DNA from: a phage
Sequence record: OZ336096.1
Length of the DNA: 64,000 nt
Reading direction: 5' to 3' (one strand)
The notes under the pieces were generated by a model. That model was not told the DNA's origin, did not search any database, and saw only the letters and a program-made list of their open reading frames with translations. Positions 11,259 to 57,476 of the stretch are shown in pieces. Position numbers and translations under genes: made by a program. Within the stretch, counting starts at the first letter, position 1, and the number at the start of each line of letters is the position of its first letter.

Positions 11259-19253
<7,995 letters not shown>

Positions 19254-19255
19254 TA

Positions 19256-20428
19256 ATGGCAGTAGGTGAAATTCAAATTAGTGCCTTGCCTCAAGCAGCC
19301 TTACCAATTGAACTTAGTGATATCTTCCATCTTAAGCAGGGTATTGAGGATAAGAGATGTACTCTTGAGCAATTACTTGCTCCACACTCAAGCCTAAGAA
19401 ATAACCCTCATGGTGTTACTAAAACACAAATTGGTTTAGATAATGTTATTAACGCTCTTCAGTTAGTTGCTGCAAATAACTTATCAGATATTGTTAATGT
19501 AGCTGAGGCAAGAGCAAATCTACAGATTATGTCTTCAGAAGAGGTTAATAACCTTGTTCAACAGCATATTAATGATAAGAGTAACCCACACAATACAACT
19601 AAGGCACAGGTAGGGTTGAGTAATGTTCAGAACTGGACAACGTCGAACCTTTATAACGAAGATGCAGATAAGTATGCTACAGCAAGAGCAGTAAATAACT
19701 TGTACAAGGCTGTTCAGGCTTCTTATCCAGTAGGTACTATCCATCTCTCTATGAATCCTGCAAACCCTTCTACATATTTAATTTGTGGAGGAACTTGGGA
19801 GTTAGTTTCAAAGGGTAGAGCGTTGGTTGGTTATGACTCTGATACAAGACCAGCAGGTTCTGTATTTGGTGCTTCAACTGTCACTTTGTCAGTTAATAAT
19901 ATGCCTCAACACTCTCACTCTGTATCTCTTAGTGGTGGTGGTCATACCCATAATGCAACTGTGTCAATTTCAGCTTTTGACTATGGAACTAAGACTACCA
20001 ACTCTTTTGACTATGGAACAAAGGATACTAATACAACGGGTAACCATACGCACAACGTATCAGGTAACACAAGTACAAATGGTACTCACAACCACGATGT
20101 GTACCCTAGAGAAAATGATGGTACTGGTAATGCTGTAGCTGACTCCGATGGTGGTGGTGCAAGAAGAACATCAAGGACATCTAGTGATGGTGCACACTCA
20201 CATAGCTTTAATGTTACATCTGGTGCATCCGGTGACCACAGCCACACAGTCGGTATTGGTGCTCACAGCCACACAGTTGGTATTGGTTCACATACACACA
20301 GTGGTACTGTGACAGTTTCTTCTTCTGAGCATACACATAGTGGTAATACGAATAGTGTTGGTGGAGGTCAGGCAGTTAATATTGAACAGCCATCCTTTGT
20401 ACTGTATGTATGGCAGAGAACAGCTTAA
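19256..20428 (+). CDS. tail fibre protein with His-rich HxH tip
   Basis: 390-aa ORF; C-terminal region rich in HSHS/HTHN/GAHSHTVGIGAHSHTV repeats like T4 gp37/gp12-type metal-binding fibre tips; followed by terminator. Confidence 0.7.
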   Translation: MAVGEIQISALPQAALPIELSDIFHLKQGIEDKRCTLEQLLAPHSSLRNNPHGVTKTQIGLDNVINALQLVAANNLSDIVNVAEARANLQIMSSEEVNNLVQQHINDKSNPHNTTKAQVGLSNVQNWTTSNLYNEDADKYATARAVNNLYKAVQASYPVGTIHLSMNPANPSTYLICGGTWELVSKGRALVGYDSDTRPAGSVFGASTVTLSVNNMPQHSHSVSLSGGGHTHNATVSISAFDYGTKTTNSFDYGTKDTNTTGNHTHNVSGNTSTNGTHNHDVYPRENDGTGNAVADSDGGGARRTSRTSSDGAHSHSFNVTSGASGDHSHTVGIGAHSHTVGIGSHTHSGTVTVSSSEHTHSGNTNSVGGGQAVNIEQPSFVLYVWQRTA

Positions 20429-20437
20429 TTTCTTTAC

Positions 20438-20460
20438 AGGGGCTTGAAAGCCCCTTTTTA
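20438..20460 (+). terminator. rho-independent terminator after first tail-fibre gene
   Basis: Perfect 8-bp stem AGGGGCTT/AAGCCCCT followed by TTTTT. Confidence 0.8.
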
Positions 20461-20474
20461 GAGGAAAATTTATA

Positions 20475-22829
20475 ATGGCAGATTACAAGTTGAGTGAATT
20501 AAACTCAATCGACACAATCCGTTCAGATGACCTTCTTCATGTCAGAGTTAAAAAGAGACCTGAAATGCTGGGTGATGAAGACCGTCGAATGACCTATCAA
20601 GATTTCTTAGCATCTTTTAAACTTGAAAGATTTGTTCAGATTGCTGGTAGTACTATGACAGGTGACTTAGGGATTGTTAAGTTACTTTATGGTGGTAAGG
20701 TAGTATTTAACCCGACAGGCTCTTCTGAGATTAATATTGGGGATGTTTTAAAGACTTTTAAAATTAACGCAAATGGTCTTAAACTAACTATTGCAGATGC
20801 TTCAAGGTCGGCAACTGTTTATCATACTCTTAATAAACCAAGCCCTAATGAACTTGGGATGCGAACTAATGAAGAGAATGATGCAAGATACTCAAGATTA
20901 GCTGTAAATAACACATTTAGAGGTACTCAAGCTATTCTCTCTGACAATGAAGCTCTTATTGCTAAGAATATTACACAAGGAATGCCACTGTATATTCGTG
21001 GTCAAGATGCAGATGGTACTAATAGGTGGTATCTAGGTAATGATAATAGAGGAACAGACAACCTTGTTTTAAAAAACGTTAAATCTGGTGCATACGTAGC
21101 GATTTTAGCTAACCTAATCTCTGTGAACAAATCAATCCAAATCACTGGTCAAGTTAAACCTTCTGACTTCTCTAACTTAGATGCTAGATACTTTACTCAG
21201 ACAGCAGCTAATCAGAGATTTGCTCAGTTAACTGGTAATAACACATTTAGTGGCTCTAACACTTTCACTAATTTTGTTATTAAGAAGAATGCTAATGCTA
21301 TTACTATTCAAAATGTAGATACAACTACGGCTTTGTATATCCAAGCAAGAAAGTCAGATGGAACTAATAAATGGTACATTGGTAATGATGGTCGTGAAGA
21401 CATTGTAAACATCTATAACTATTTAGCAAAAACACAAATCTCACTAGGCGACACCATTACTATGAGTAGAACAGTCCAAATTGGTGGTCAAGTTCAACCT
21501 TCTGATTGGGCTAATATTGACTCTAGATATATTCCAGCAGCTACTTTGAATAATCTTCCTAAACTTAATGTGGCAAATACTTTTACAAATGTGCAGACTA
21601 TTGTATCTAACAATGAAGGTCTAGTATTGAGGAACTTAACACAGGGGCTTCCACAATATATCCGTGGTGTTGATACTGCGAATGTATCTAGGTGGTGGGT
21701 AGGTGTAGGTGGCGCAAACTCTAATGATGTAGCCTTAAACAACAGCTACTCTGGGACTCAAATTACTCTTATGCCTTCAGCGGTTAAGGCTAATAAGAAT
21801 CTAATCATTACTGGTCAAGTTCAACCTTCTGACTTCTCTAACTTAGATGCTAGATACTATACCCAAGCTGCCGCAAACTCAAGATATATGCTTGCAAGCA
21901 TCACTGGTTCGGCTTCTGAAGCAGATGGTGGTGATGGTGTTGCATGGGATGCAAAAACAGGTCTTTATAAGGTTACTAACACCACTGGACAGTCTTCTTC
22001 ACTTGTATATCACATGTTTTTAGGGGCTAGTTCTACACCATCTGCACAATTAAAGTTTTCGTTTAAAAATGGTGGGATGTGGTATAGAACATCAAGAGAT
22101 GCCTATGGCTTCGAAGTTAATTGGTCTAAAGTTTACACGGAAGCACAAAAACCAACCCCTTCAGAGATTGGTGCATACACTAAAGCTGAAACTGACCAGA
22201 AAATTGCAACAGCAATTAGTGACTCTACAGACCTTAACAAAATCTATCCAGTTGGTATTGTAACGTGGTTTAACAGTAATGTTGACCCTAATACAGCACT
22301 TCCTGGGTTGACTTGGACGTACCTGAACAATGGTGTTGGCAGAACTATCAGAATCGCAGCAGCAAACGGTTCAGATGTTGCTACAACTGGTGGTTCAGAT
22401 TCTGTGACGTTAGCTGTTGGTAACTTACCGTCACACACCCATAGTTTCTCTGCTACCACTTCATCTTTTGATTATGGTACGAAGAACACTAATAGCACTG
22501 GTGCGCACACCCACTCAGTTAGTGGTACTGCTGCATCTGCTGGACAACACGCGCACAAGATTTCACAGGGTGATAACGCTAACGTTCCATCAGGTAGAGT
22601 CGCGTCTTCAAACTCTAGACAGACCCATGTTGGTTGGACTGAAAATGATGGTGCACACACTCACTCAGTTAGTGGTACTGCTGCATCTGCTGGTGCTCAC
22701 ACTCACTCTGTAGGTATTGGTGCTCACAGCCACACAGTTAGTGGTAACACTGGTGGTACAGGTTCTGGTTCAGCATTTAGTGTTACTAACCAGTTCTACA
22801 AGTTAATGGCTTGGGTAAGAACTGCTTAA
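20475..22829 (+). CDS. long tail fibre protein
   Basis: 784-aa ORF with three internal ~110-aa repeats (ITGQV(K/Q)PSDFSNLDARY...) and the same C-terminal HxH region and ...W(V/Q)RTA ending as the upstream fibre gene. Confidence 0.75.
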   Translation: MADYKLSELNSIDTIRSDDLLHVRVKKRPEMLGDEDRRMTYQDFLASFKLERFVQIAGSTMTGDLGIVKLLYGGKVVFNPTGSSEINIGDVLKTFKINANGLKLTIADASRSATVYHTLNKPSPNELGMRTNEENDARYSRLAVNNTFRGTQAILSDNEALIAKNITQGMPLYIRGQDADGTNRWYLGNDNRGTDNLVLKNVKSGAYVAILANLISVNKSIQITGQVKPSDFSNLDARYFTQTAANQRFAQLTGNNTFSGSNTFTNFVIKKNANAITIQNVDTTTALYIQARKSDGTNKWYIGNDGREDIVNIYNYLAKTQISLGDTITMSRTVQIGGQVQPSDWANIDSRYIPAATLNNLPKLNVANTFTNVQTIVSNNEGLVLRNLTQGLPQYIRGVDTANVSRWWVGVGGANSNDVALNNSYSGTQITLMPSAVKANKNLIITGQVQPSDFSNLDARYYTQAAANSRYMLASITGSASEADGGDGVAWDAKTGLYKVTNTTGQSSSLVYHMFLGASSTPSAQLKFSFKNGGMWYRTSRDAYGFEVNWSKVYTEAQKPTPSEIGAYTKAETDQKIATAISDSTDLNKIYPVGIVTWFNSNVDPNTALPGLTWTYLNNGVGRTIRIAAANGSDVATTGGSDSVTLAVGNLPSHTHSFSATTSSFDYGTKNTNSTGAHTHSVSGTAASAGQHAHKISQGDNANVPSGRVASSNSRQTHVGWTENDGAHTHSVSGTAASAGAHTHSVGIGAHSHTVSGNTGGTGSGSAFSVTNQFYKLMAWVRTA
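21141..21200 (+). repeat. intragenic direct repeat in long tail-fibre gene (unit 1)
   Basis: ACTGGTCAAGTTAAACCTTCTGACTTCTCTAACTTAGATGCTAGATAC recurs near-identically at ~21810; coordinates approximate. Confidence 0.7.
21807..21866 (+). repeat. intragenic direct repeat in long tail-fibre gene (unit 2)
   Basis: Near-identical to 21141-21200; a more diverged third unit lies near 21481. Confidence 0.7.
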
Positions 22830-29130: not shown

Positions 29131-29349
29131 TCATAGCAACTCCAGAATATCAATACGTTCACCCTTAAGGACTCCGGTGCGGTCTCTTGCAATCTTACCG
29201 TCAACGATAAGGATATGCGCGACCTTTAAAGCCTCACGATTAAAACCTTTTAAGAACTTACTAGGCATCACCACAATAAGCATCTCTTGAATCAACTCTG
29301 GAGTATAGCAGTTGTCGTGAAGTTGCTGAATAACGTCTGCAAGTGTCAT
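29131..29349 (-). CDS. hypothetical protein
   Basis: 72-aa ORF. Confidence 0.4.
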   Translation of the reverse strand: MTLADVIQQLHDNCYTPELIQEMLIVVMPSKFLKGFNREALKVAHILIVDGKIARDRTGVLKGERIDILELL

Positions 29350-29400
29350 ATAACCTCCTATATAAGATACAGTATAAGGTACTCTTCCCTGAGCACCTTG

Positions 29401-29934
29401 TCAACTTAGTTTTGCAAACTCTCCGTGGAGTTTAATAGCAGCTTCACAGTAAGCTTTATGGGCTTCTTCAGGGGTGTCATGGTGACCTAAAAACATCTTC
29501 TTACCTTTATAACTTATCTGTGCGACCCACTTACCAGACTTCTTCTTAAGACTTACACCCTTGTACCCAGATTTATTGGTGACTGGTTTACCTTTATTCC
29601 AAGCACTTTGAAAATCATCTGCTTCCCTTAAGTTTACAATCCTGTTGTCAAGCGAGTCTCCGTTGATATGGTCAATGATACCTTTTGGCATCTTGCCATA
29701 CACGTAAAGCCATGCGAGTCTGTGTGCTTTATGTGCTTTCTTGTCAAAATAGATACTAATCTGTTTATGACCACTTGAATCAGTCTGGATATTACCTGCC
29801 ACCTTTCCTGCATAATTACTGTTAAAAACACTAACAGCTCTTGATTTACCTTCTCTACGAAGCCAAGTAAAGACCCCTGTTTCGGGGTCATAGTGCAGCA
29901 GCTCCTTTAAACGTTTTTGTAAAATTAAGTCCAT
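29401..29934 (-). CDS. HNH-AP2 homing endonuclease (free-standing)
   Basis: HNH motif (IDHINGDSLDNRIVNLR) followed by AP2-type DNA-binding domain (YKGVS...KWVAQISYKGKKMFLGHHDTPEEAHKAY); sits immediately 3' of DNA polymerase exon 2. Confidence 0.8.
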   Translation of the reverse strand: MDLILQKRLKELLHYDPETGVFTWLRREGKSRAVSVFNSNYAGKVAGNIQTDSSGHKQISIYFDKKAHKAHRLAWLYVYGKMPKGIIDHINGDSLDNRIVNLREADDFQSAWNKGKPVTNKSGYKGVSLKKKSGKWVAQISYKGKKMFLGHHDTPEEAHKAYCEAAIKLHGEFAKLS

Positions 29935-29937
29935 TAA

Positions 29938-30494
29938 TCAATGTACCTCATACCAGCTCTTACCAACCTTTGCTGTACCAGTTACAAGTGTTTCTTTCCT
30001 CAAACCTAAGTTTTTTGAAGCTTGTCCATACATCCAGTCAGCAATTGCTTTCATATCCTGTGTCATACCCTCTGGACATTCCCAACTATTTTCATCGTGA
30101 TATGCCAGAAGTAACCTTGCTCCGATAGCTGGTTTTCGAGCATTCAGTTTTGTCAGGCCATCTTCACAGGCTTTTCTTGCTGCTAGGTTGATGGCCTCAT
30201 TCTGAATCTGTGCTTCCGAACTCATCAGGAGGTAGTTCAGTAGTTTATGTGGAGATTTGCACCATATCCATGCTCCAGCGACCCTGATATAACCACCTTT
30301 AGCAATTGAAGAATTCTTCCCAAAAACCTCTTCCAGAGCCTTTTTAGACGCCTTAAAATCGGCTTCTAAGCTATCAAGTAACTTCTTAATCTTTGGCAGA
30401 CGCATATAGTAAGTTTGTTTAGTCAATGCACCTTCTTCCGTAGATGATGCTTTGATAGTTTTTGCAAACTTCTCGTCACCTGCACCGAACAATA
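29938..30494 (-). CDS. DNA polymerase (family A, T7-like), exon 2
   Basis: Begins inside motif B (..LFGAGDEKFAK, cf. T7 FLYGAGDEKIG), contains HDE motif C and T7-like C-terminus (KSWYEVH); listed ORF starts with TTG, consistent with an exon rather than an independent gene. Confidence 0.8.
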
Positions 30495-30762
30495 CATCTG
30501 GTCAATACACTCGCAAGGTGTACCAGTTCTCTTATGAACTTCTCCGCATTTCTACGGAGTGTCGGACTATATCACGTAGTAGTAATACTACCGTTGCACT
30601 TGGGAATGGTCATTAGCTTACCACCCTACTCTACTCAGTTCATACATTAAGTATGCTTTTCGATAGTCTCTGAACGTTCCTCTTAAGAGGCTTCGCTGCT
30701 GATTACCATATCTTTTAAGACTTAGGCTTCCAGCAATTCACAACGTTTTACATGCGCCACTG
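30495..30762 (-). ncRNA. group I self-splicing intron (ORF-less) in DNA polymerase gene
   Basis: Conserved group I elements read on the sense strand in order P (AATTGCTGGAA; + coords 30728-30738), Q (AATCAGCAG; 30696-30704), R (GTTCAGAGACTATCG; 30661-30675), S (GATATAGTCC; 30564-30573); proposed boundaries put U at the 5' exon end, G at the intron end, and restore motif B as IYALLFGAGDEK; exact splice sites are inferred. Confidence 0.7.
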
Positions 30763-32935
30763 ACGCATAGATGCCATTTTTGCTCTTCTTACGACCTTTT
30801 GTAATCTCGTGAAGAAGTTCCTCATCCTGTGTCTCCCTACAACGAACAATATCTTCTTCCTTGTTCAGACCAAAGTAAATACTGTTCAGTGTATGCGCAT
30901 CAGTCCCTGTGTAGACTTCATAGAGGTCGTTCTCAGCATCATAACGAAGATACTTGTCAGTTTCTGGATTAAGATACTTATCGAGATGCTTGCAATAGTA
31001 TCTTCCATCCTCTTGCTTAGTGAACTCTACTGACTCTTTACCCTCAGTTACTGCTTTAGTGAAGTCTTCATCACCCATAAAGTTACAAAGAAGAACTAGC
31101 TGGGCTGAGTTCTGGTCAACGGAAACGATGTTAGTCCCCTCCTCACAAATCCACACCTCCCTCATAGGTGCTCCATAGACAGCAGCACCAGACGGTACGT
31201 TTACAATACCATATTGCGTCATACGTCCAGTTGAAGTACCAAACACCATTGCACCAGCACTAAGGCGACCATCTGGACGAATCTGGTTCAACCAACCTTT
31301 TTCATCATCCTTTGAGTTCTCAATAGTCCTGCGTCGGTGCATCAAAGTATAGTACTTAGCAATCTTCTGTCCAAGCTCACCTTCAATCGTATCATAAGAT
31401 GATTCAGTAAGTTTTGGTGAAGTACGGATTAAGCAAGGCTCAAGCAAATCTGTGTACTTCTTCACAGACCAGTTATGTTCAATGTACTGGACACCTTCAT
31501 GTTCAACATAACTCAAGCCGCACCGTTCAACCATCTCCTGCCACTTAGGATGCTTTGTAATCATCTTTTTGTTGTCTTTGAAACGACAAACTTTGACAGG
31601 GCGACCATCTGAATCTTTCTTGTAGTTCCAGTCATCTGGAATCCAGCCAACTGATTTCAAGTAGTCTTTAACAACTGCTACTTGAGTCATACGAGAAACT
31701 TCAAACTCAATTGGTGTATATGGTGCATCAATCAATCCTGTGTAGCGACTTGACTCCAGTCCAAAGTGGTTAACAACATGACTGTTATAGTACTTCACAG
31801 TTTTAACTGTTTTTACTGGCTTCCAGTCTTTGCATTTCTTACCAATCTTTGCGTTCAACTCATTGCAAATTGCACGAGCATCCTTCATTGCTACAAAACC
31901 CTCCTTGTACTCTTCACCAGTTACAGAGTTGGTTGGCGTATAGCAATTTCTCTTTTCAATGTTAAAAATCTTTGTAGTTGGCTTACCAAATGGTTTGATT
32001 TCGTATGTCTGCATCTCACCGTTACGTACCTGCTGACGATACTTTGTCTTAGGGTACTTGGTAATCCTCTTCAGTCCATCTGCATGACCAAATGTTTCAA
32101 CATACTCATTCCAAGCTTTTGCAAACTCTTCTCCAGTGACTTTACCTTTGGTCTTAATAGTTGGAGGAAGATGTGGTTCAACCTCTGAAGCAAGCTCATT
32201 AGTCAACTTGTCAAGTTCCTTTACATGGAACTCCATAAGTTCTTTATCAGCTTTCCAACCATTGATAGCTTGTTGACTCATCCAGAAAGATGTTTCTTTA
32301 GCTCGCATGTAGGTTTCATAAGTGTCTATGCCACACTTCTTAAGCTTGAGATACTCATTATCAAGTGCCCGTTTAGTTTTGGCGTTAATACGGATATCTT
32401 CTACAACACGAGTGAAGATTTCTGCATTCCACACACCCCAATGTTCAATCTCTGGTTTACGAACACCAACACGAGCACCCCATGCAGCCAAACCATGAGC
32501 ACCTTTATAACCCTTTGGAGTTGGTCTATCCATCCACTGAACACGAGACTGGATAAGAGAATCCTGAAAGAAGTTACTCCACGGTTTACACTTTGGATTA
32601 TCAAAGTTCCATAAATCAGGTGCAATGTGGTTGAAAACCCACCAGTCATAACCGAGACCATTATGGATGCAAAGACGTTTTGCCTTTAACGCAAACTCAA
32701 CACCTTCACGCAAACCACCCTTAATGTACTTGGTATACTTGTGACCGAGGATAGGCTCGTCTGTAAAGACCCATACAGGTGGCTCTTCATCGTCAGATTT
32801 ATAGTCTGCAAAGGCCATTACGTGAACTTTAGTGAACTCAAGGAGTAAACCATCAGTTTCTGTATCACCAACCAAATGTAAGTTTTTAAAATCTACGTTT
32901 TCCATTTTTACTCCCTCTAAAATCATTAACCACAT
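30763..32935 (-). CDS. DNA polymerase (family A, T7-like), exon 1
   Basis: 3'-5' exonuclease Exo I motif DTETDG near N-terminus; ends in first half of motif B (RKKSKNGIYA); probable true start at the ATG for MENVDFK (~32905); the listed ORF's last 13 codons are read-through into the intron. Confidence 0.85.
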
Positions 32936-46087: not shown

Positions 46088-47284
46088 ATGAACAAAGTAC
46101 AAATTATTAAAAAGAATGGCTCACTTGAAGAACCGGATATCAAAAAAGTTTTAGTAGCAGTCACAAAGTCAGCTAACAGGGTTGGTTATAAAGAGCTTCC
46201 ACCAGATGTTACTCAAGCCCTTGAGTCAGCATTTATGAGGATTCTGGTAAAATCTACTAAGCAGAATAATTTACTCGTTTCAGTAAATGATATTCACAGT
46301 ATTGTTGAAGGTGCTTTGGCAGAGGTCAATCACGAGATTTATGAGTCTTACTCAACATACAGAAATTACCGTAAAGAGGTTGCTCAAAATTGGGACGAAC
46401 TCTACCAGAAGACTAAAGATACACTCTTCTTAGGTGACCGTGAAAATGCTAACTTTGACAGCAGTTTAATTTCTACGAAAGGTTCAATTATCCGTGGTTA
46501 CCTGACTAAAGAAATCTTTAAACAGTATCATCTAACACCAGAGGAACTTGAAGCCATTGAGAAAGGCTTTATCTATATCCACGATTTGAGAGACCTGATT
46601 TTTGGTGGTATTAACTGTTGCCTGTTTGACATTGGTAAAGTACTAAAAGGTGGCTTTGAAATGTCCGGCATTGAGTACTGTGAACCTAAATCTGTACTGT
46701 CAGCGTTGCAGGTTATCGGTGACGTAGTACTTTCAGCAACTGCACAGCAATTTGGTGGATTTACTTTAGCAGAGATTGATAAGGTACTTGTACCGTATGC
46801 TAAGAAGTCTCTACGCTATCATGCTGAGAAAGCAGCATCTTACGGTATTCCTAAAGAACATTACCATAATTATGTCATGGAGCAGCTACAGATTGAATTA
46901 ACTCAAGGTTTCCAGTCACTAGAGATGAAGCTAAATACTGTACCTTGTAGCCGTGGTGATTTCGCATTCACAACTTTAACATTTGGTTTACTTGACTCAG
47001 ACATGTCTAATGAAGACAACCGACTACAATACATGATTGCAAACACCATTCTTGATGTTCGCATGAATGGACAAGGTAAGAGCAAGAAGCCTGTTGTATT
47101 CCCTAAACTGGTTTATATTCATGACCAGAAGAGACACGATGAGAATATCTGTCAAGGTCAACTGTACAGTAAAGCTATTGAGTGTTGCTCTAAAGCTATG
47201 TATCCAGATTTCTTAAGTGTATCTGGTCATGGTGCTGTAGCAGAGGCTTTTGAGCGTTCTGGCAAGGTAATTTCACCGATGGGT
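46088..47284 (+). CDS. nrdD: anaerobic ribonucleotide reductase (class III), exon 1
   Basis: Class III RNR N-terminal region by overall resemblance; ends ...VISPMG just before the intron. Confidence 0.8.
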
Positions 47285-47600
47285 TAACAGGCTCTATAGC
47301 TCATCTAAAACGTGCCTAAACAGGGAAACTCTACAGATGTAGACAATCCTGTGCTAAATGATGTACGATGTAAGAAACTATACAACATAGGAGTCTTACA
47401 TGCCAAATAACTTCGAATATGAGTTTGAATACATCTAAATGCCGAACGACTAACCGTGATGAATGTAGCGGTGTAGGGTCAAGCGACTCGAAATGGTACG
47501 CTACTTAGAAATAAGTAGAAGATATAGTCTGGACTTACTGGCGACAGTAAGCAGCTTGAATAAAGCGGGGTAAGCTTAGCGAACTTACCTGAACAACAAG
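47285..47600 (+). ncRNA. group I self-splicing intron (ORF-less) in nrdD
   Basis: Exon 1 ends in U, intron ends in G; joining gives PMG-CRAFLSP, recalled as conserved in NrdD; intron holds P-like (AAACAGGGAAA, 47318-47328), Q-like (AATCCTGTG, 47345-47353), R-like (GAACGACTAAC, 47444-47454) and S (AGAAGATATAGTCT, 47517-47530) elements in canonical order; no long ORF. Confidence 0.75.
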
Positions 47601-48548
47601 TGTAGAGCGTTTTTATCACCATACCATAACGAATATGGTGAAGAGTTTTATGTAGGTCGTGCTAATATTGGTGCTGTATCTTTGAACTTACCAATGATTT
47701 ACCAGTATTCTAAAGAGAATGGTTTAGATTTCTGGAAAGAGCTTGATAAGTACCTAGAGATGATTCGCAGCTTCCACAAGAAACGCTACGAAATGATTGC
47801 TAATATGCCAGCAAGTTCTAACCCTCTTGCATTTACACAAGGTGGTCTGTACAAAGGGACTAAGAAACCTACTGATAAGGTTGGCTGGGATATTGTGAAG
47901 TCCTTCACAGCTTCTTTTGGGGTTACTGCACTAGACGAGCTATCTGTTCTTGCTGAAGGTAAGCGACTTCATGAAGTTGGAAGCTGTAGTTTTGCATATG
48001 ATGTTCTGGAATATATCAACATAAAGACTGAAGAGTTTAAAAATGAAGATGGTTTCTTATATGCAGTCTATGGCACTCCAGCAGAATCACTTTGTGGAAC
48101 TCAGCTAAAACAGTTCAGAGATATGTTTGGCGTTATCAAAGGTGTTTCTGATAAAGAATACTTTACAAATAGTTTCCATATGAATGTTGCAGCAGACATT
48201 ACACCATTTGAGAAGCAGGACTTAGAAGAACCTTTCTTCCATATCTGTAGAGGTGGCAGAATCCAGTATGTAAGGGTAGCTAACCCAGAAAACTTACCAG
48301 CACTTAAAAGTTGTATTACAAGAGGGATGTTGAAAGGTTTCTATCAGGGACTTAACTTTGACTTAGCAATCTGTGAACATTGTGGTAACAGACCAAAGGC
48401 TGATGTTGAAGAATGTGAGGTTTGCCATTCACACGATATCTCTGTGATTAACAGGGTGTGTGGGTACTTGTCATTCACAAAAATTAAAGGTCAGTCTCGA
48501 ATGAATGACGCTAAGATGGCAGAAATTAAGGATAGGGTTTCTATGTAA
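47601..48548 (+). CDS. nrdD: anaerobic ribonucleotide reductase (class III), exon 2
   Basis: Reading frame open from 47601 (CRAFLSPYHNEYGEEFYVGRANIG...); Cys cluster and C-terminal glycyl-radical motif RVCGYL. Confidence 0.8.
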   Translation, partial: CRAFLSPYHNEYGEEFYVGRANIGAVSLNLPMIYQYSKENGLDFWKELDKYLEMIRSFHKKRYEMIANMPASSNPLAFTQGGLYKGTKKPTDKVGWDIVKSFTASFGVTALDELSVLAEGKRLHEVGSCSFAYDVLEYINIKTEEFKNEDGFLYAVYGTPAESLCGTQLKQFRDMFGVIKGVSDKEYFTNSFHMNVAADITPFEKQDLEEPFFHICRGGRIQYVRVANPENLPALKSCITRGMLKGFYQGLNFDLAICEHCGNRPKADVEECEVCHSHDISVINRVCGYLSFTKIKGQSRMNDAKMAEIKDRVSM

Positions 48549-51270: not shown

Positions 51271-51786
51271 ATGTATCTGTCAAACCTAAAACGTTCTGCT
51301 GCAATGTCAGTGCTAAGACTCAGCTTTGAGGAACGTCAAGAGTTCATTGACTCCCACCAATACGACCCCTCAAACTCCAATCACATGATTCTCTGGAATC
51401 GTGAAAGTACTCGTGAAAGAGCACTATTCCGTTATTACCCACACTACACTATAGATAACCTGTATGAATGTTTTGTTGTGAAGAACACCATTACAGTACT
51501 CAATAAACTTTGCAGATACACAGGTAGTCAATCCTTCACATTAGGCCACCACAAACCTGTTACAAAGGGTGGTGAGCATCACTGTGCAAACTGGTTTATC
51601 CAGACTAAACTTGATAACCAGAAGCAGGGAGATAACCTTCTAAGCACACCTAAGATGACCTACGAAGAACAAGAGAAATATATCAAAAATAATATGCCAG
51701 ATGTGCTTGACAACAACTATACAGATTTGGCAATATCTCTCCTGTTGAAGTTCGAGACAGTTTATAGGGCAACTTACAATGGCTAA
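51271..51786 (+). CDS. HNH endonuclease (free-standing)
   Basis: HNH-type motif LGHHKPVTKGGEHHCANWFIQTKLDNQKQG. Confidence 0.6.
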   Translation: MYLSNLKRSAAMSVLRLSFEERQEFIDSHQYDPSNSNHMILWNRESTRERALFRYYPHYTIDNLYECFVVKNTITVLNKLCRYTGSQSFTLGHHKPVTKGGEHHCANWFIQTKLDNQKQGDNLLSTPKMTYEEQEKYIKNNMPDVLDNNYTDLAISLLLKFETVYRATYNG

Positions 51787-52057
51787 AGAAAAGTGGGAGA
51801 TTTTACCATTAGTCAGTGAAGGTGGTAATGGTTGTGAGATGTACATGATACGTGGTCATGTTCCAGAACCAATTGCACTTGAGATGGTAAACAACTTTAC
51901 AGATGGTTCTTACAAAGACTTAGGAGAGCCAACTATAAAGCATCAATGGGTAAAACCTGTACCAGACAGCACAGGTAACTGTAGTGTACTTTACCACGTT
52001 GTAGACCCTGTAAAATGCAAATCTGCAATGGCAGTAACAAACGTAACTTTTGATTGA
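51779..52057 (+). CDS. hypothetical protein
   Basis: 92-aa ORF. Confidence 0.4.
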   Translation: MAKEKWEILPLVSEGGNGCEMYMIRGHVPEPIALEMVNNFTDGSYKDLGEPTIKHQWVKPVPDSTGNCSVLYHVVDPVKCKSAMAVTNVTFD

Positions 52058-52066
52058 GAGAAAATT

Positions 52067-52522
52067 ATGATTTTTTGCAGCTTCCAAAAAAGAATTATTG
52101 AGATTCTATACAATAAGTTTGGGACAGATAACACATTTGACTCAAATGAAGCTATTGAAGCCCTACAAGAAGGAAGTGATTACATCAAAAAACAGCCAAT
52201 AGCAAACATCAGGTACTACTTGACTCAGATGAGAAAGTGGGGTGTGCTCATCGTGGTAGGACAGATTAAGCAACAAGGGAGGATGCTCATCAACCAATTA
52301 AATAGAGGTTTTATTGAGAAGCACATTCAGCTAGACTATTTACTTAAAGAGCCACGAAACCAACGTGAAGAGCAGCAAAAAGACTTAAGTGGTGGTGTAG
52401 GTGTGTCTCCAGACATAAAATTCTTTATTGGTGAGTTGATGTTTGATACACTCCAAGATGCTGTTGAACACTGCAAAAAGTATGTTATCAAAGTAAAACG
52501 TGCAAAAATTATTTGGGAGTAA
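52067..52522 (+). CDS. paralog family protein, copy 1 (A-type)
   Basis: 151 aa; shares N-terminal MIFC.(F/L)QK..IEILY..FGT.NTFDSNEAI.AL and C-terminal A(V/I)EHCKK..IKVK.AK(I/V)IWE with copy 3. Confidence 0.6.
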   Translation: MIFCSFQKRIIEILYNKFGTDNTFDSNEAIEALQEGSDYIKKQPIANIRYYLTQMRKWGVLIVVGQIKQQGRMLINQLNRGFIEKHIQLDYLLKEPRNQREEQQKDLSGGVGVSPDIKFFIGELMFDTLQDAVEHCKKYVIKVKRAKIIWE

Positions 52523-52526
52523 TAAC

Positions 52527-52922
52527 ATGTTTGAGCTTCTGAAGGTTCTGTATATAAATTTTGGCTATGATAAAACATTTTCTGGCTCACAACTAACTAA
52601 GGTTTTTAATAAGTATCTACCACATGCTTCAATCAGGGATAAAGCTAATTGGTCTCACAGATTACGTAAAAGTGGGTATATTAGCGTTGTTGGAGCGACA
52701 GGCTTTAATAATGAGTATCTTATGAGAATCAATGAAGGCAAAGCTAAAAATGTGCTTTTAAATTGTAATGACCATCAACAAAAGGATGAAGAGGTTAGTG
52801 TAGGTGAAGTAGGGTACTTTATAGGTGACATGCACTTTACCAGTATGGAGGCAGCAGTTGAGCATTGTAAGAGAACGGTTATCCAAACAAAAAGAAAGCG
52901 TATTGTTTGGGAAGAAGTTTAA
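52527..52922 (+). CDS. paralog family protein, copy 2 (B-type)
   Basis: 131 aa from ATG 52527; shares M(F/I)ELLKVLY..FGYDKTF and C-terminal EA(A)VE(H/Y)CK..(V/I)IQ.KR.(R/K)(I/V)(V/I)WE with copy 4. Confidence 0.6.
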   Translation: MFELLKVLYINFGYDKTFSGSQLTKVFNKYLPHASIRDKANWSHRLRKSGYISVVGATGFNNEYLMRINEGKAKNVLLNCNDHQQKDEEVSVGEVGYFIGDMHFTSMEAAVEHCKRTVIQTKRKRIVWEEV

Positions 52923-52943
52923 ACATTTGATTAGGAATACACT

Positions 52944-53408
52944 ATGATTTTTTGCAATTTACAGAAGCACGTAATAGAGATTTTATACAAAACCTTCGGG
53001 ACAGAAAACACTTTTGACTCTAACGAAGCAATTGACGCATTAAGAGAGAATAGCCTTTTTATACGAGGCCAGTCAATCAGTAATACCCGTGGGTATCTAA
53101 CAATGTTAAGACAGTCTGGTGTACTGCTGACTGTAGGGCAGGTAAAAAGCAAAGGTAGACTAAGTATTAATCAATTAAATCGAGCCTTTATGGAGAAGCA
53201 CATACAACTGTCAAGGATGCTAGATAATACGCGTGAAGAGTTGGGGAGTTCACAAAAAGCAAGTTCATCTGATGTTAAAGAGGTGGATGTACAACCTGAC
53301 GTAAGATACTTTATTGCTGATGTTATGTTTAAAACACTCGATGAAGCTATTGAGCACTGCAAAAAGCATCTTATTAAAGTTAAATATGCAAAAGTTATTT
53401 GGGAGTGA
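52944..53408 (+). CDS. paralog family protein, copy 3 (A-type)
   Basis: 154 aa; clear paralog of copy 1. Confidence 0.6.
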   Translation: MIFCNLQKHVIEILYKTFGTENTFDSNEAIDALRENSLFIRGQSISNTRGYLTMLRQSGVLLTVGQVKSKGRLSINQLNRAFMEKHIQLSRMLDNTREELGSSQKASSSDVKEVDVQPDVRYFIADVMFKTLDEAIEHCKKHLIKVKYAKVIWE

Positions 53409-53412
53409 TGCT

Positions 53413-53793
53413 ATGATTGAACTGTTAAAAGTCCTGTATAATGAGTTTGGTTATGATAAAACTTTTACTTGTTCACAGATACGTAGTATCCATGATAAGG
53501 AATTTCCAAATGTATCCAAGACAAACAAGTCAACTCGGTTCAATCGTCTTCGCCAGAGGGGTTACATTAAAATAGTTGGATACAAGAATAACTCTTTCGA
53601 GTATGTAATGCAGATTAACAGAGAAGTATCAAGTAAAATACTTGAAGAGCCAACAGCCGAAGAACAAAAGATACAAGACGGTGAAGTTCGCTTCTTTGTG
53701 GAGAAGGAAAGTTTTGGGTCAATAGATGAAGCTGTCGAATATTGTAAAAAGAACATTATTCAGATAAAGCGTAGAAAGGTTATTTGGGAATAA
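53413..53793 (+). CDS. paralog family protein, copy 4 (B-type)
   Basis: 126 aa from ATG 53413; clear paralog of copy 2. Confidence 0.6.
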   Translation: MIELLKVLYNEFGYDKTFTCSQIRSIHDKEFPNVSKTNKSTRFNRLRQRGYIKIVGYKNNSFEYVMQINREVSSKILEEPTAEEQKIQDGEVRFFVEKESFGSIDEAVEYCKKNIIQIKRRKVIWE

Positions 53794-53808
53794 AGAGAGA
53801 GAGAAGCT

Positions 53809-54690
53809 ATGAAAACATCTATCCGTGTTACAGTTCATTCACCGACTAAAGGGACTCACGAAGAAGAGTTTAACATTATCCAATTCCCTTCTGGTGAGAT
53901 TGGTGGACACTTTTCACAAGAGCTTGTTGATTTCACTGCTTATGCAGCATCATCCATCAACAATGTGATTATGATTGTAAAGGGTTACGATAAGGATACC
54001 TTGTTTGCCCTAGCACTTGCTAAAGAGGTGGTGGATGACTTAGTACCTCATAAGTTTGCTATGAAGACTGTTATCTTTTACTATTTGCCAAATGCACGTT
54101 ACGACCGTCACATGTTTAAAGGTGATGCAGCAGCTTTGAAAGTGTTTGCACAACAGGTTAATGCAATGGGTTTTGATGCAGTCTGTGCAGTTGACCCTCA
54201 CAGCTATGTACCAGATAACCTGTTTAACTGCTTCCAGAGTATTCCTCAAAAGGAAATTGCAGTTCACTATGCAAATGACCCTCTGATTGATTACTTAGTA
54301 GCCCCAGATGCAGGTGCTGCTAAGAAGATTGCAGAGACTGCTAAAGAGGTGGATAAACCATATATCACAATGTCTAAAGTACGCAACCTTAAGACTGGTG
54401 AAATTACTGGTATGCGAATCCTTGATGATGTTGATTTGACAGATAAAACCGTCATGATTCTGGATGATATCTGTGATGGTGGTCGAACCTTCATAGAAGC
54501 AGCGAAACATCTTCGTGAAGCAGGTGCAAAACGTGTGGAACTATATGTAACACATGGTATCTTCTCTAAAGATGTTGAAAACCTTCTTGACAACGGTATC
54601 GACCATATTTACACTACAAACTCTTTAGGCGAAGCTAAAGACCGTGGCTTAACACATTATAGCCAAGTTACTGTAGCAAACCTTGATTGA
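53809..54690 (+). CDS. prs: ribose-phosphate pyrophosphokinase (PRPP synthetase)
   Basis: 293-aa ORF with PRPP-binding motif (VMILDDICDGGRT) and DPH motif; followed by terminator. Confidence 0.85.
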   Translation: MKTSIRVTVHSPTKGTHEEEFNIIQFPSGEIGGHFSQELVDFTAYAASSINNVIMIVKGYDKDTLFALALAKEVVDDLVPHKFAMKTVIFYYLPNARYDRHMFKGDAAALKVFAQQVNAMGFDAVCAVDPHSYVPDNLFNCFQSIPQKEIAVHYANDPLIDYLVAPDAGAAKKIAETAKEVDKPYITMSKVRNLKTGEITGMRILDDVDLTDKTVMILDDICDGGRTFIEAAKHLREAGAKRVELYVTHGIFSKDVENLLDNGIDHIYTTNSLGEAKDRGLTHYSQVTVANLD

Positions 54691-54699
54691 AAGTTTATA

Positions 54700-54720
54700 G
54701 GGGCTTAAAAGCCCCATTTT
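54700..54720 (+). terminator. rho-independent terminator after prs
   Basis: GGGGCTT-AA-AAGCCCC followed by ATTTT. Confidence 0.75.
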
Positions 54721-55077
54721 GAGAGAGATTAAAAGATGACTAAATCACTTTATGCAGTACCAGCAGGTTTAAACGCAGATGCTTACAAGTCATCGCATAT
54801 ATATCAGTATCCAGATGCTACACAGTATCTTATGCTGAACCTGACGCCACGTAGTGACAAATGGTTTAACAGCCCCTTAGCAATTGATGGTGTAGTAGCT
54901 TTTGGTATTCAACGTTTCGTTAAAGATTACTTGATAGACCACTGGAACGCCACTTTCTTTGAACGTGATAAAAAAGAAGCAATTGACGAAATCTTAGAAG
55001 TCATGAACGGTGTTCTGGGCAAAGATGCTATTGGTCGAGAGCATTGGGAAGCACTTCACGACTTAGGTTATCTGCCA

Positions 55078-55960
55078 GTCGAAGTATACGCTGTAGAAGA
55101 AGGCACAGTTGTTCCAATGCGTGTCCCAATGATTGTCTTCCAGAACACTGTTTCAGGCTTCCATTGGGTAGCAGGTTATCTGGAAGACGCTTTCTCTGCT
55201 GAGATTTGGAAGGCTTGTACCATTGCAACTATTGCATTGCACTACAAACGTATCTGTAAGAAGTGGGCTGACCTTACTTGTGACAACGACTTGCATTTAC
55301 CTTATCAGTGCCATGACTTTGCTATGCGTGGTATGTCCGGCTTTACTGATGACGCATTTAACGCTGTAGGCCACTTAACCAGCTTTAAAGGAACTGATAG
55401 CTTCCCTGCTGTATATACAGCTAAACGCATCTACGGGCAGTCTTACCCAATCTCTGATATTGGTGGTTCTGTACCAGCCACTGAACACTCTGTAATGTGT
55501 GCAAACATTGCTTGGGAAGGTGGTAATGAATTGATTGAAGAAGAAAGACGCTTCAAAGGTGAGTTGCAAACCTTCCGTCGCTTCTTAACAGAGACTTACC
55601 CAACTGGTATTGCAAGTGTTGTTTCAGACACTTATAACTTCTGGAGAACTGTGTCAGAAATCTTACCAGCACTCCGTAAAGAGATTATGGAACGTGATGG
55701 CAAACTGGTAATTCGTCCTGACTCTGGAGACCCTGTACATATTGTCACAGGTTATAAAGCAATCCACTTAGAGTGTGCTAAAAAGGCTTATTACGAGCAC
55801 CTAAGCAAGCTAGAGGCAGGTGATACAATGCTGAGCACCGTCCTGAACATGAAGCTTGAAGATATTAACTATGTTATGGCTGGGTGGTTACGTGCAGAAG
55901 GCTATGAAATGGTGGTTGACAGAGAAGACTTTGAAGTAGCCGATACAGTGTTGCTGAAAG
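55078..55960 (+). repeat. tandem duplication, copy 1 (883 bp)
   Basis: Identical to 55998..56880 at 920-bp offset wherever checked by eye. Confidence 0.85.
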
Positions 55961-55997
55961 CTTCATGTTCAGGACGGTGCTCAGCATTGTATCACCT
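55961..55997 (+). repeat. inverted 37-bp junction segment
   Basis: Exact reverse complement of 55818..55854; abuts the palindromic AAGCTT at the end of copy 1. Confidence 0.85.
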
Positions 55998-56880
55998 GTC
56001 GAAGTATACGCTGTAGAAGAAGGCACAGTTGTTCCAATGCGTGTCCCAATGATTGTCTTCCAGAACACTGTTTCAGGCTTCCATTGGGTAGCAGGTTATC
56101 TGGAAGACGCTTTCTCTGCTGAGATTTGGAAGGCTTGTACCATTGCAACTATTGCATTGCACTACAAACGTATCTGTAAGAAGTGGGCTGACCTTACTTG
56201 TGACAACGACTTGCATTTACCTTATCAGTGCCATGACTTTGCTATGCGTGGTATGTCCGGCTTTACTGATGACGCATTTAACGCTGTAGGCCACTTAACC
56301 AGCTTTAAAGGAACTGATAGCTTCCCTGCTGTATATACAGCTAAACGCATCTACGGGCAGTCTTACCCAATCTCTGATATTGGTGGTTCTGTACCAGCCA
56401 CTGAACACTCTGTAATGTGTGCAAACATTGCTTGGGAAGGTGGTAATGAATTGATTGAAGAAGAAAGACGCTTCAAAGGTGAGTTGCAAACCTTCCGTCG
56501 CTTCTTAACAGAGACTTACCCAACTGGTATTGCAAGTGTTGTTTCAGACACTTATAACTTCTGGAGAACTGTGTCAGAAATCTTACCAGCACTCCGTAAA
56601 GAGATTATGGAACGTGATGGCAAACTGGTAATTCGTCCTGACTCTGGAGACCCTGTACATATTGTCACAGGTTATAAAGCAATCCACTTAGAGTGTGCTA
56701 AAAAGGCTTATTACGAGCACCTAAGCAAGCTAGAGGCAGGTGATACAATGCTGAGCACCGTCCTGAACATGAAGCTTGAAGATATTAACTATGTTATGGC
56801 TGGGTGGTTACGTGCAGAAGGCTATGAAATGGTGGTTGACAGAGAAGACTTTGAAGTAGCCGATACAGTGTTGCTGAAAG
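55998..56880 (+). repeat. tandem duplication, copy 2 (883 bp)
   Basis: Identical to 55078..55960. Confidence 0.85.
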
Positions 56881-57450
56881 ATGCTTACATCAACGGCTCT
56901 GCAAACGTTGTAACACGTCCTGTAGCGGAGATTGATGGAGCTATCAAGACACTGTATAACATCTTTGGGGGAACTATTAACTCTAAAGGGTTTAAGGTAC
57001 TGGATGAGCACATCGGCCTTATCTATGGTGACTCTATCACACTGGAACGTGCAAACGAAATCCTGAAGCGTCTGTATGAAATGGGTTTTGCAAGCTCTAA
57101 CGTGGTGTTTGGTGTAGGTTCTTACACTTACCAGTACATGACTCGTGACACCTTTGCATTTGCTGTCAAAGCAACTCTTGCAAGCATTGGTGGTAAAGAG
57201 ATTATGCTTGCAAAAGACCCTAAAACAGATAGTGGTGTTAAAAAATCTGCCTTTGGTGGTGTAGCACCTATGTGGGATGGTGATAAGCTGAAAGCTGTAG
57301 ATGGCTATGGATTCCAGAGTTTTGCGGATGTACTTGACCACCCAGCTTGTGCTTTACGTTTAGTCTTTAGTGACTCTGAGCAGTTCGGTTACACAACTCT
57401 TGGTGATATTCGAAATAATATTGACAAGCAGCTTTAAAAGTATATGATAA

Positions 57451-57476
57451 GAGGCTCCTACGGGAGCCTTTTTAAT
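57451..57476 (+). terminator. rho-independent terminator after nadV
   Basis: AGGCTCC-TACG-GGAGCCT followed by TTTTTAATTT. Confidence 0.8.

Follow-up and report, generated by a model that had tools for sequence, protein, structure and literature searches.

A Felixounavirus genome carries, in the sequence as deposited, a namat gene interrupted by an extra 920 bp: a tandem duplication whose two copies are joined by a short inverted segment. This anatomy is consistent with a polymerase having switched templates twice within a single physical DNA molecule, and a real molecule is somewhat more likely than a library or assembler artifact, since a two-junction structure of this kind is hard to obtain from the usual artifacts of either sort. 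We assign a probability of about 60% to the reading that the double switch took place in vivo in the sequenced phage lineage or population, where it would be fixed or present in a sizeable subpopulation. As written, namat is a disrupted gene (pseudogene).

Results

Structure of the duplication

In the window (the whole stretch of 64,000 nucleotides that was analyzed), positions 55078 to 55960 and 55998 to 56880, both on the plus strand, form a direct repeat that is perfect over 883 bp (883/883 identical) and cannot be extended further. The offset between the copies is 920 bp (920 mod 3 = 2). Both the exact match and an offset that is not a multiple of 3 had been put forward in the original prediction, and both were borne out, as was the inverted spacer of 37 bp: positions 55961 to 55997, between the copies, are the exact reverse complement of 55818 to 55854. 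Copy 1 corresponds to namat codons 115 to 409. When the bases common to the joins are included, the inverted arm amounts to 41 nt with 100% complementarity, 55958 to 55998 against 55817 to 55857 on the plus strand (namat codons 361 to 374) or, equally, against 56737 to 56777, where the filler template recurs in copy 2. The filler also matched the minus strand of the related phage UAB_Phi87 at 100%. A perfect 41-nt inverted match was calculated to occur by chance about 1e-15 times in 64 kb, and neither the direct nor the inverted repeat is attributable to chance. A repeat scan of the 64-kb window revealed no further long perfect direct or inverted repeat.

Junction 1 reads GCTGAAAG/CTTCATG (the slash marks the join) and has a microhomology of 3 nt, AAG (55958 to 55960), which would be met by chance in about 1/64 of cases. 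Junction 2 reads TATCACCT/GTCGAAG, with CACCT just before the slash, and has a microhomology of 1 nt, G (55998); the corresponding chance is about 1/4, so that this single base is no more than chance expectation. The join had originally been described as lying at a palindromic AAGCTT, a point that did not hold: the left breakpoint of the parental, single-copy sequence is GAAAG/ATGCTT, only AAG is common to both sides, and AAGCTT arises only through the join.

The AAGCTT created at junction 1 might suggest a ligation chimera made with HindIII, but the parental left breakpoint, AAGATG, is not a HindIII site, and this candidate was rejected. Two further trivial origins fared no better. Assemblers often duplicate the ends of phage genomes; the repeat found here, however, is internal to a conserved ORF, some 55 kb into the record, and contains an inverted, self-derived filler, which rules out a mis-assembly of a terminal repeat or of a circular permutation point. 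Insertion of a mobile element was dismissed because the inserted 920 bp were 100% self-derived and held no foreign ORF. Taken as one class, these origins appear hardly credible.

Identity of the interrupted gene

Removal of the 920 bp from the sequence gave one ORF with a product of 593 aa, in agreement with the predicted split of a parent of about 593 aa into two overlapping ORFs. The reconstructed protein was identical to Bas63_0080 (gp80) at 571/593 residues (96.3%) without gaps, and it was collinear with, and 97% identical to, the 593-aa homologue of UAB_Phi87. Across the two ORFs, Pfam searches found the Nampt-like domains PF18127 (NAMPT_N) and PF04095 (NAPRTase), and the best solved homologues were the SpbetaL1 Namat structures 9W5W/9W5X (E = 4e-128). 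On the same strand, 45 nt upstream, lies an intact gene of 293 aa (53809 to 54690, plus strand) with the Pfam domains Pribosyltran and Pribosyl_synth. By these domains and a gap-free identity of 80% to Bas63_0079 (gp79) it was assigned as adps, coding for a PRPS-like ADPR-PP synthetase and usually annotated as prs. A terminator-like hairpin at 57449 to 57472 (plus strand) marks the end of the operon. Within the 45-nt gap between adps and namat, ATTTTG follows a perfect GC hairpin, GGGGCTTAAAAGCCCC (window positions 54700 to 54715), which is a candidate internal attenuator or RNA-processing site.

In phage Bas63, genes 79 and 80 constitute the NAD+ reconstitution pathway NARP1, in which Adps ("prs") converts ADPR to ADPR-PP and Namat ("nadV") forms NAD+ from ADPR-PP and nicotinamide; deletion of genes 79-80 left Bas63 viable, yet sensitive to SIR2-HerA (Osterman et al., bioRxiv 10.1101/2024.02.11.579819). 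The enzymology of Namat was performed on the SpbetaL1 homologue (bioRxiv 10.1101/2024.02.11.579819). Namat is distinguished from Nampt by a clamp consisting of aromatic clamp-helix residues (F392 and Y396 in SpbetaL1) and a stacking residue in a loop (R40), which in Bas63 Namat is located one position after the equivalent of SpbetaL1 R40 (PMC12774641). This selectivity clamp was kept in the reconstructed protein: in the sequence alignment to 9W5X, Y490/Y494 aligned to SpbetaL1 F392/Y396, and K42-W43 to R40/V41.

Because of the 96% identity to Bas63 gp80, the adjoining adps orthologue, and the clamp features, we assign the interrupted gene to namat of the adps-namat NARP1 anti-defense operon. 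The original label of nadV/NAMPT thus captured a Nampt-like gene with a 593-aa parent, but a classical nadV/NAMPT it is not. A classical NadV/Nampt of the NARP2 pathway (as in KVP40, for example), which uses PRPP and goes with a phage-encoded Nmnat and no Adps, was rejected since Adps adjoins and the orthologue Bas63 gp80 has been assigned to NARP1. Given the 96% identity to gp80, the parental protein would be expected to prefer ADPR-PP over PRPP and to synthesize NAD+. The operon resembles that of Bas63 (JohannRWettstein, MZ501086) in genus, in gene order (a 293-aa adps followed by a 593-aa namat), and in its clamp residues; it differs in that namat is interrupted here by the self-derived insertion and encodes no full-length protein.

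Consequences for the protein

Because its 920 bp do not amount to a whole number of codons, the insertion divides namat into two incomplete, overlapping ORFs, with the frame broken at 55960/55961. ORF1 (54736 to 56016, plus strand; 426 aa) comprises Namat residues 1 to 408 plus 18 out-of-frame residues from the filler and the start of copy 2, and therefore ends without residues 409 to 593. ORF2 (55965 to 57437, plus strand; 490 aa) starts at an ATG inside the filler and comprises 10 foreign residues followed by Namat residues 115 to 593, and is without residues 1 to 114. In Pfam searches, ORF1 gave NAMPT_N plus the first half only of NAPRTase, and ORF2 gave NAPRTase with NAMPT_N absent. The sole candidate ribosome-binding site upstream of ORF2 is a weak GAAAG. 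Felixounavirus Namat has an insertion of about 85 to 90 aa (window positions 55750 to 56010 in copy 1, residues ∼340 to 426) that is absent from 9W5W/9W5X, 9KE8, and human NAMPT, and this insertion contains both the right breakpoint (aa 409) and the filler template (aa 361 to 374).

The NAD+ pocket of SpbetaL1 Namat was mapped onto the reconstructed protein via the 9W5X alignment and residues of human NAMPT (a manually entered sequence). Neither ORF retains the full set of active-site residues in this mapping: D15, Y17, and K42/W43 are present in ORF1 only; G458 to S460 (G458/D459/S460), G488 to Y490, Y494, and T496 to D498 are present in ORF2 only; and F195, R198, D221, H251, R327, and D329 are present in both. 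In SpbetaL1 Namat, the pocket spans a head-to-tail dimer to which the partner contributes D13'/Y15'/R40'/T398'-D400' (PMC12774641). No homodimer or heterodimer of ORF1 and ORF2 is predicted to form a complete NAD+ pocket, because the trans-acting set is split between the two ORFs and ORF1 is devoid of the cis residues G458 to Y494. Enzyme activity would thus be lost, and the operon would be nonfunctional as written. A phage in this NARP1-null state could not regenerate NAD+ from ADPR plus nicotinamide and would hence be sensitive to NAD+-depleting defenses.

These residues bear on a further reading, namely that the arrangement is selected or functional, either as a reversible OFF state of NARP1 or as a split enzyme in which ORF1 and ORF2 complement each other. 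The two ORFs jointly hold every parent residue, as a split enzyme would require, but complementation was rejected at the residue level on the basis of the SpbetaL1 pocket, and the ribosome-binding context of ORF2 is weak. As to an OFF state, NARP1 is dispensable where no NAD+-depleting defense is present and is gone from two other phages of the genus (see below), and homologous recombination between perfect 883-bp tandem copies can restore the single-copy state precisely. Against selection of any sort, the arrangement occurred a single time, its copies are undiverged, and no sign of selection was seen. A selected or functional arrangement in this general sense is therefore very improbable. In its specific form, a real and selected OFF state of NARP1 that arose when the phage replisome switched templates twice and is precisely revertible by recombination, it is improbable as well, if slightly less so. 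Its motive could be a cost of NARP1 or escape from a host system that senses Namat or NARP1, with the operon being regained under an NAD+-depleting defense.

Comparison with related phages

The window belongs to the genome of a Felixounavirus (Ounavirinae; a Felix-O1-like myophage) with about 94 to 95% nucleotide identity to the best public records. The 883-bp segment was single copy in 231/231 related phage records and duplicated in none (0/231), and the full-length matches to a 2,801-bp query all spanned about 1,881 bp (2,801 minus 920). Close homologues of the Namat protein had 593 to 608 aa, the closest being 97% identical. The junction sequence was not found in IMG/VR viral contigs, JGI metagenomes, or GTDB genomes; a 601-bp junction region had no match in E. 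coli genomes or plasmids; and the exact ORF1, ORF2, Adps, and rIIA proteins were absent from a collection of 15 billion proteins. The collections searched contained no independent assembly or read-derived contig of the phage.

An ORF-by-ORF comparison with phage RPN213 identified namat as the only real split gene in the 64 kb; like the repeat scan, it lends no support to an error-prone assembly. Homing-endonuclease insertions interrupt the genes for DNA polymerase and nrdD in relatives (cf. window positions 29153 to 32935, minus strand, and 46088 to 48548): the polymerase of RPN213 is split and accompanied by an HNH gene, and the nrdD of Bas63 is in two pieces, with an endonuclease. Two ORFs of nrdD size are also present in the window, at 46088 to 47287 and 47682 to 48548. 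Upstream of adps are two paralogous small genes (52045 to 52591 and 52922 to 53477) with ∼66% nucleotide identity, 877 bp apart, and RPN213 carries the pair as well. The tail-fiber genes (19974 to 22742) contain several diverged internal repeats, including His-rich units of the GAHSH type; the stretch from 21605 to 22146 had no match in RPN213 and is probably a host-range-variable part.

Judging from deposited genomes, loss of NARP1 has precedents in the genus, since the operon is also inactivated in Salmonella phage FO1a (JF461087.1) and Escherichia phage phiWec174 (LC739531.1). Both differ from the present case in their lesion, which involves neither a duplication nor an inverted junction. 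FO1a has a deletion of ∼3.9 kb (equivalent to window positions 51591 to 55498) that takes away adps together with the first ∼254 namat codons, and its annotated 405-aa "nadV" is the truncated remnant of namat. In phiWec174, a 1-nt frameshift is responsible, and namat is annotated as frameshifted, with coding sequences (CDSs) of 87 aa and 504 aa. An HNH endonuclease gene lies directly upstream of phiWec174 namat, and the matches of phiWec172 and phiWec177 begin at the identical query position. Genes with 92 to 94% identity to Felixounavirus namat were also detected in two records whose names point to unrelated hosts, GU169904.1 (Staphylococcus phage SA1, 147 kb) and MG065664.1 (Campylobacter phage A132); both are probably contaminated or chimeric assemblies.

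Origin of the rearrangement

For the in vivo double template switch, we propose the following course. Plus-strand copying by a DNA polymerase would have reached 55960, leaving a 3' end in ...AAG, and this end would have re-paired with a CTT located 103 nt behind, by folding back onto the same-sense strand or by crossing the fork. From there, 41 nt would have been copied in the opposite direction, from 55857 down to 55817. A second switch would then have returned the end to the original template 739 nt further upstream (55078), where forward synthesis resumed. The outcome would be the 883-bp tandem duplication with its 37-nt inverted filler, produced in a single compound event. The insertion at the junction is indeed templated by the nearby opposite strand, as an exact reverse complement was found 103 nt behind the breakpoint, and two strand switches with 3-nt and 1-nt microhomologies accord with the template-switch interpretation offered in the original prediction. 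Within 55817 to 55960, no hairpin favoring fold-back was found; the region folded worse than shuffled controls (z = +1.29).

Comparable replicative template-switch or fold-back rearrangements, described as quasipalindrome type, FoSTeS, or MMBIR, share with the present one a tandem duplication, a short insertion from the opposite strand within ∼100 nt of the breakpoint, and possibly microhomology at the switches (1 to 3 nt). They differ in that no preexisting quasipalindrome or stable hairpin occurs here and that an in vivo origin is, for the phage, a proposal. The models were established mostly in the genomes of E. coli, yeast, and humans. The phage supplies a replisome of its own, among whose components is a primase-helicase of the T7 gp4 type with Toprim and DnaB fused. 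It is by the architecture of this protein alone that the replisome is called T7-like, because the 737-aa DNA polymerase ORF had no Pfam hit at 1e-5. Wild-type T7 replisomes switch templates in vitro at short complementarity, giving inverted chimeras (PMC9484634).

The main rival explanation is a chimeric molecule of low frequency, formed during amplification of the MDA/phi29 type or during library preparation and traversed once as a loop by the assembler, while the real namat is intact; we regard it as possible but doubtful. Several observations speak for such an artifact: the two copies are identical, the junction is unique to one record, with all 231 relatives being single copy, and an otherwise conserved gene is destroyed. 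In addition, position 1 of the window is the ATG of the gene for a T4-type large terminase (terL, 1 to 1602), which aligns to position 14323 of RPN213. The source record has evidently been rotated to start at terL; this is a sign of automated re-orientation, possibly with little manual curation, and suggests a pipeline assembly. A de Bruijn assembler at very high coverage can thread a rare chimeric molecule into a contig as a loop.

Junction 1 in particular (inverted, 103 nt away, 3 nt) resembles the chimeras formed in MDA, most of which are inverted and which link segments separated by less than 10 kb, beginning at 2 to 21 nt of complementarity (PMC1855051). Measured by the same values (<10 kb, at least 2 nt), junction 2 has a distance of 739 nt, but a complementarity of 1 nt only. 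The MDA chimeras reported (PMC1855051) are, moreover, joins of two segments, whereas here two switches are placed 41 nt apart. In more general terms, the chimeras of phi29 MDA (PMC1855051) and the T7 replisome (PMC9484634) share inverted joins between nearby sites (<10 kb) and short complementarity with our case, and junction 1 fits this pattern; in contrast to their single junctions or full hairpins, the two switches found here restore the original orientation.

Other arguments likewise weaken the case for an artifact. MDA is seldom needed for lysates of cultured phages, and no other anomaly of any kind was present across the 64 kb. By our reasoning, had the filler come from a fold-back during end repair, the inversion would have extended beyond 55817, and no return to 55078 would be seen. 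Neither PCR chimeras nor the strand flips of de Bruijn graphs should arise, again by reasoning, from microhomologies as short as 3 and 1 nt; since the two junctions lie 41 nt apart and their microhomologies fall far below any assembler k-mer and below what PCR annealing needs, strand switching by a polymerase on a physical molecule is required. The dispensability of NARP1 in the laboratory and its loss elsewhere in the genus also speak for a real event. What weighs against an in vivo event is that none of the 231 relatives is duplicated and that the copies are 100% identical, the latter fitting a very recent event and an artifact equally.

Discussion

The interrupted namat adds one case to a class of rearrangements or chimeras that is already known, in an anti-defense gene that is known as well, and represents no new system, family, or mechanism. 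Whichever origin applies, two CDSs that an annotator would label "nicotinamide phosphoribosyltransferase" are fragments of one namat gene. If the structure is an artifact, the record can be corrected by removing 920 bp, which restores the 593-aa Namat. If it is real, it would provide a clean example of a phage replisome switching templates in two steps, and the arrangement itself would offer a way to regain the intact gene. The phage would then be a natural NARP1-null Felixounavirus, expected to show the phenotype of Bas63Δ79-80 on hosts that carry SIR2-HerA, type I Thoeris, DSR, or a similar defense that depletes NAD+, and its NARP1-null state would bear on predictions of host range and for therapy.
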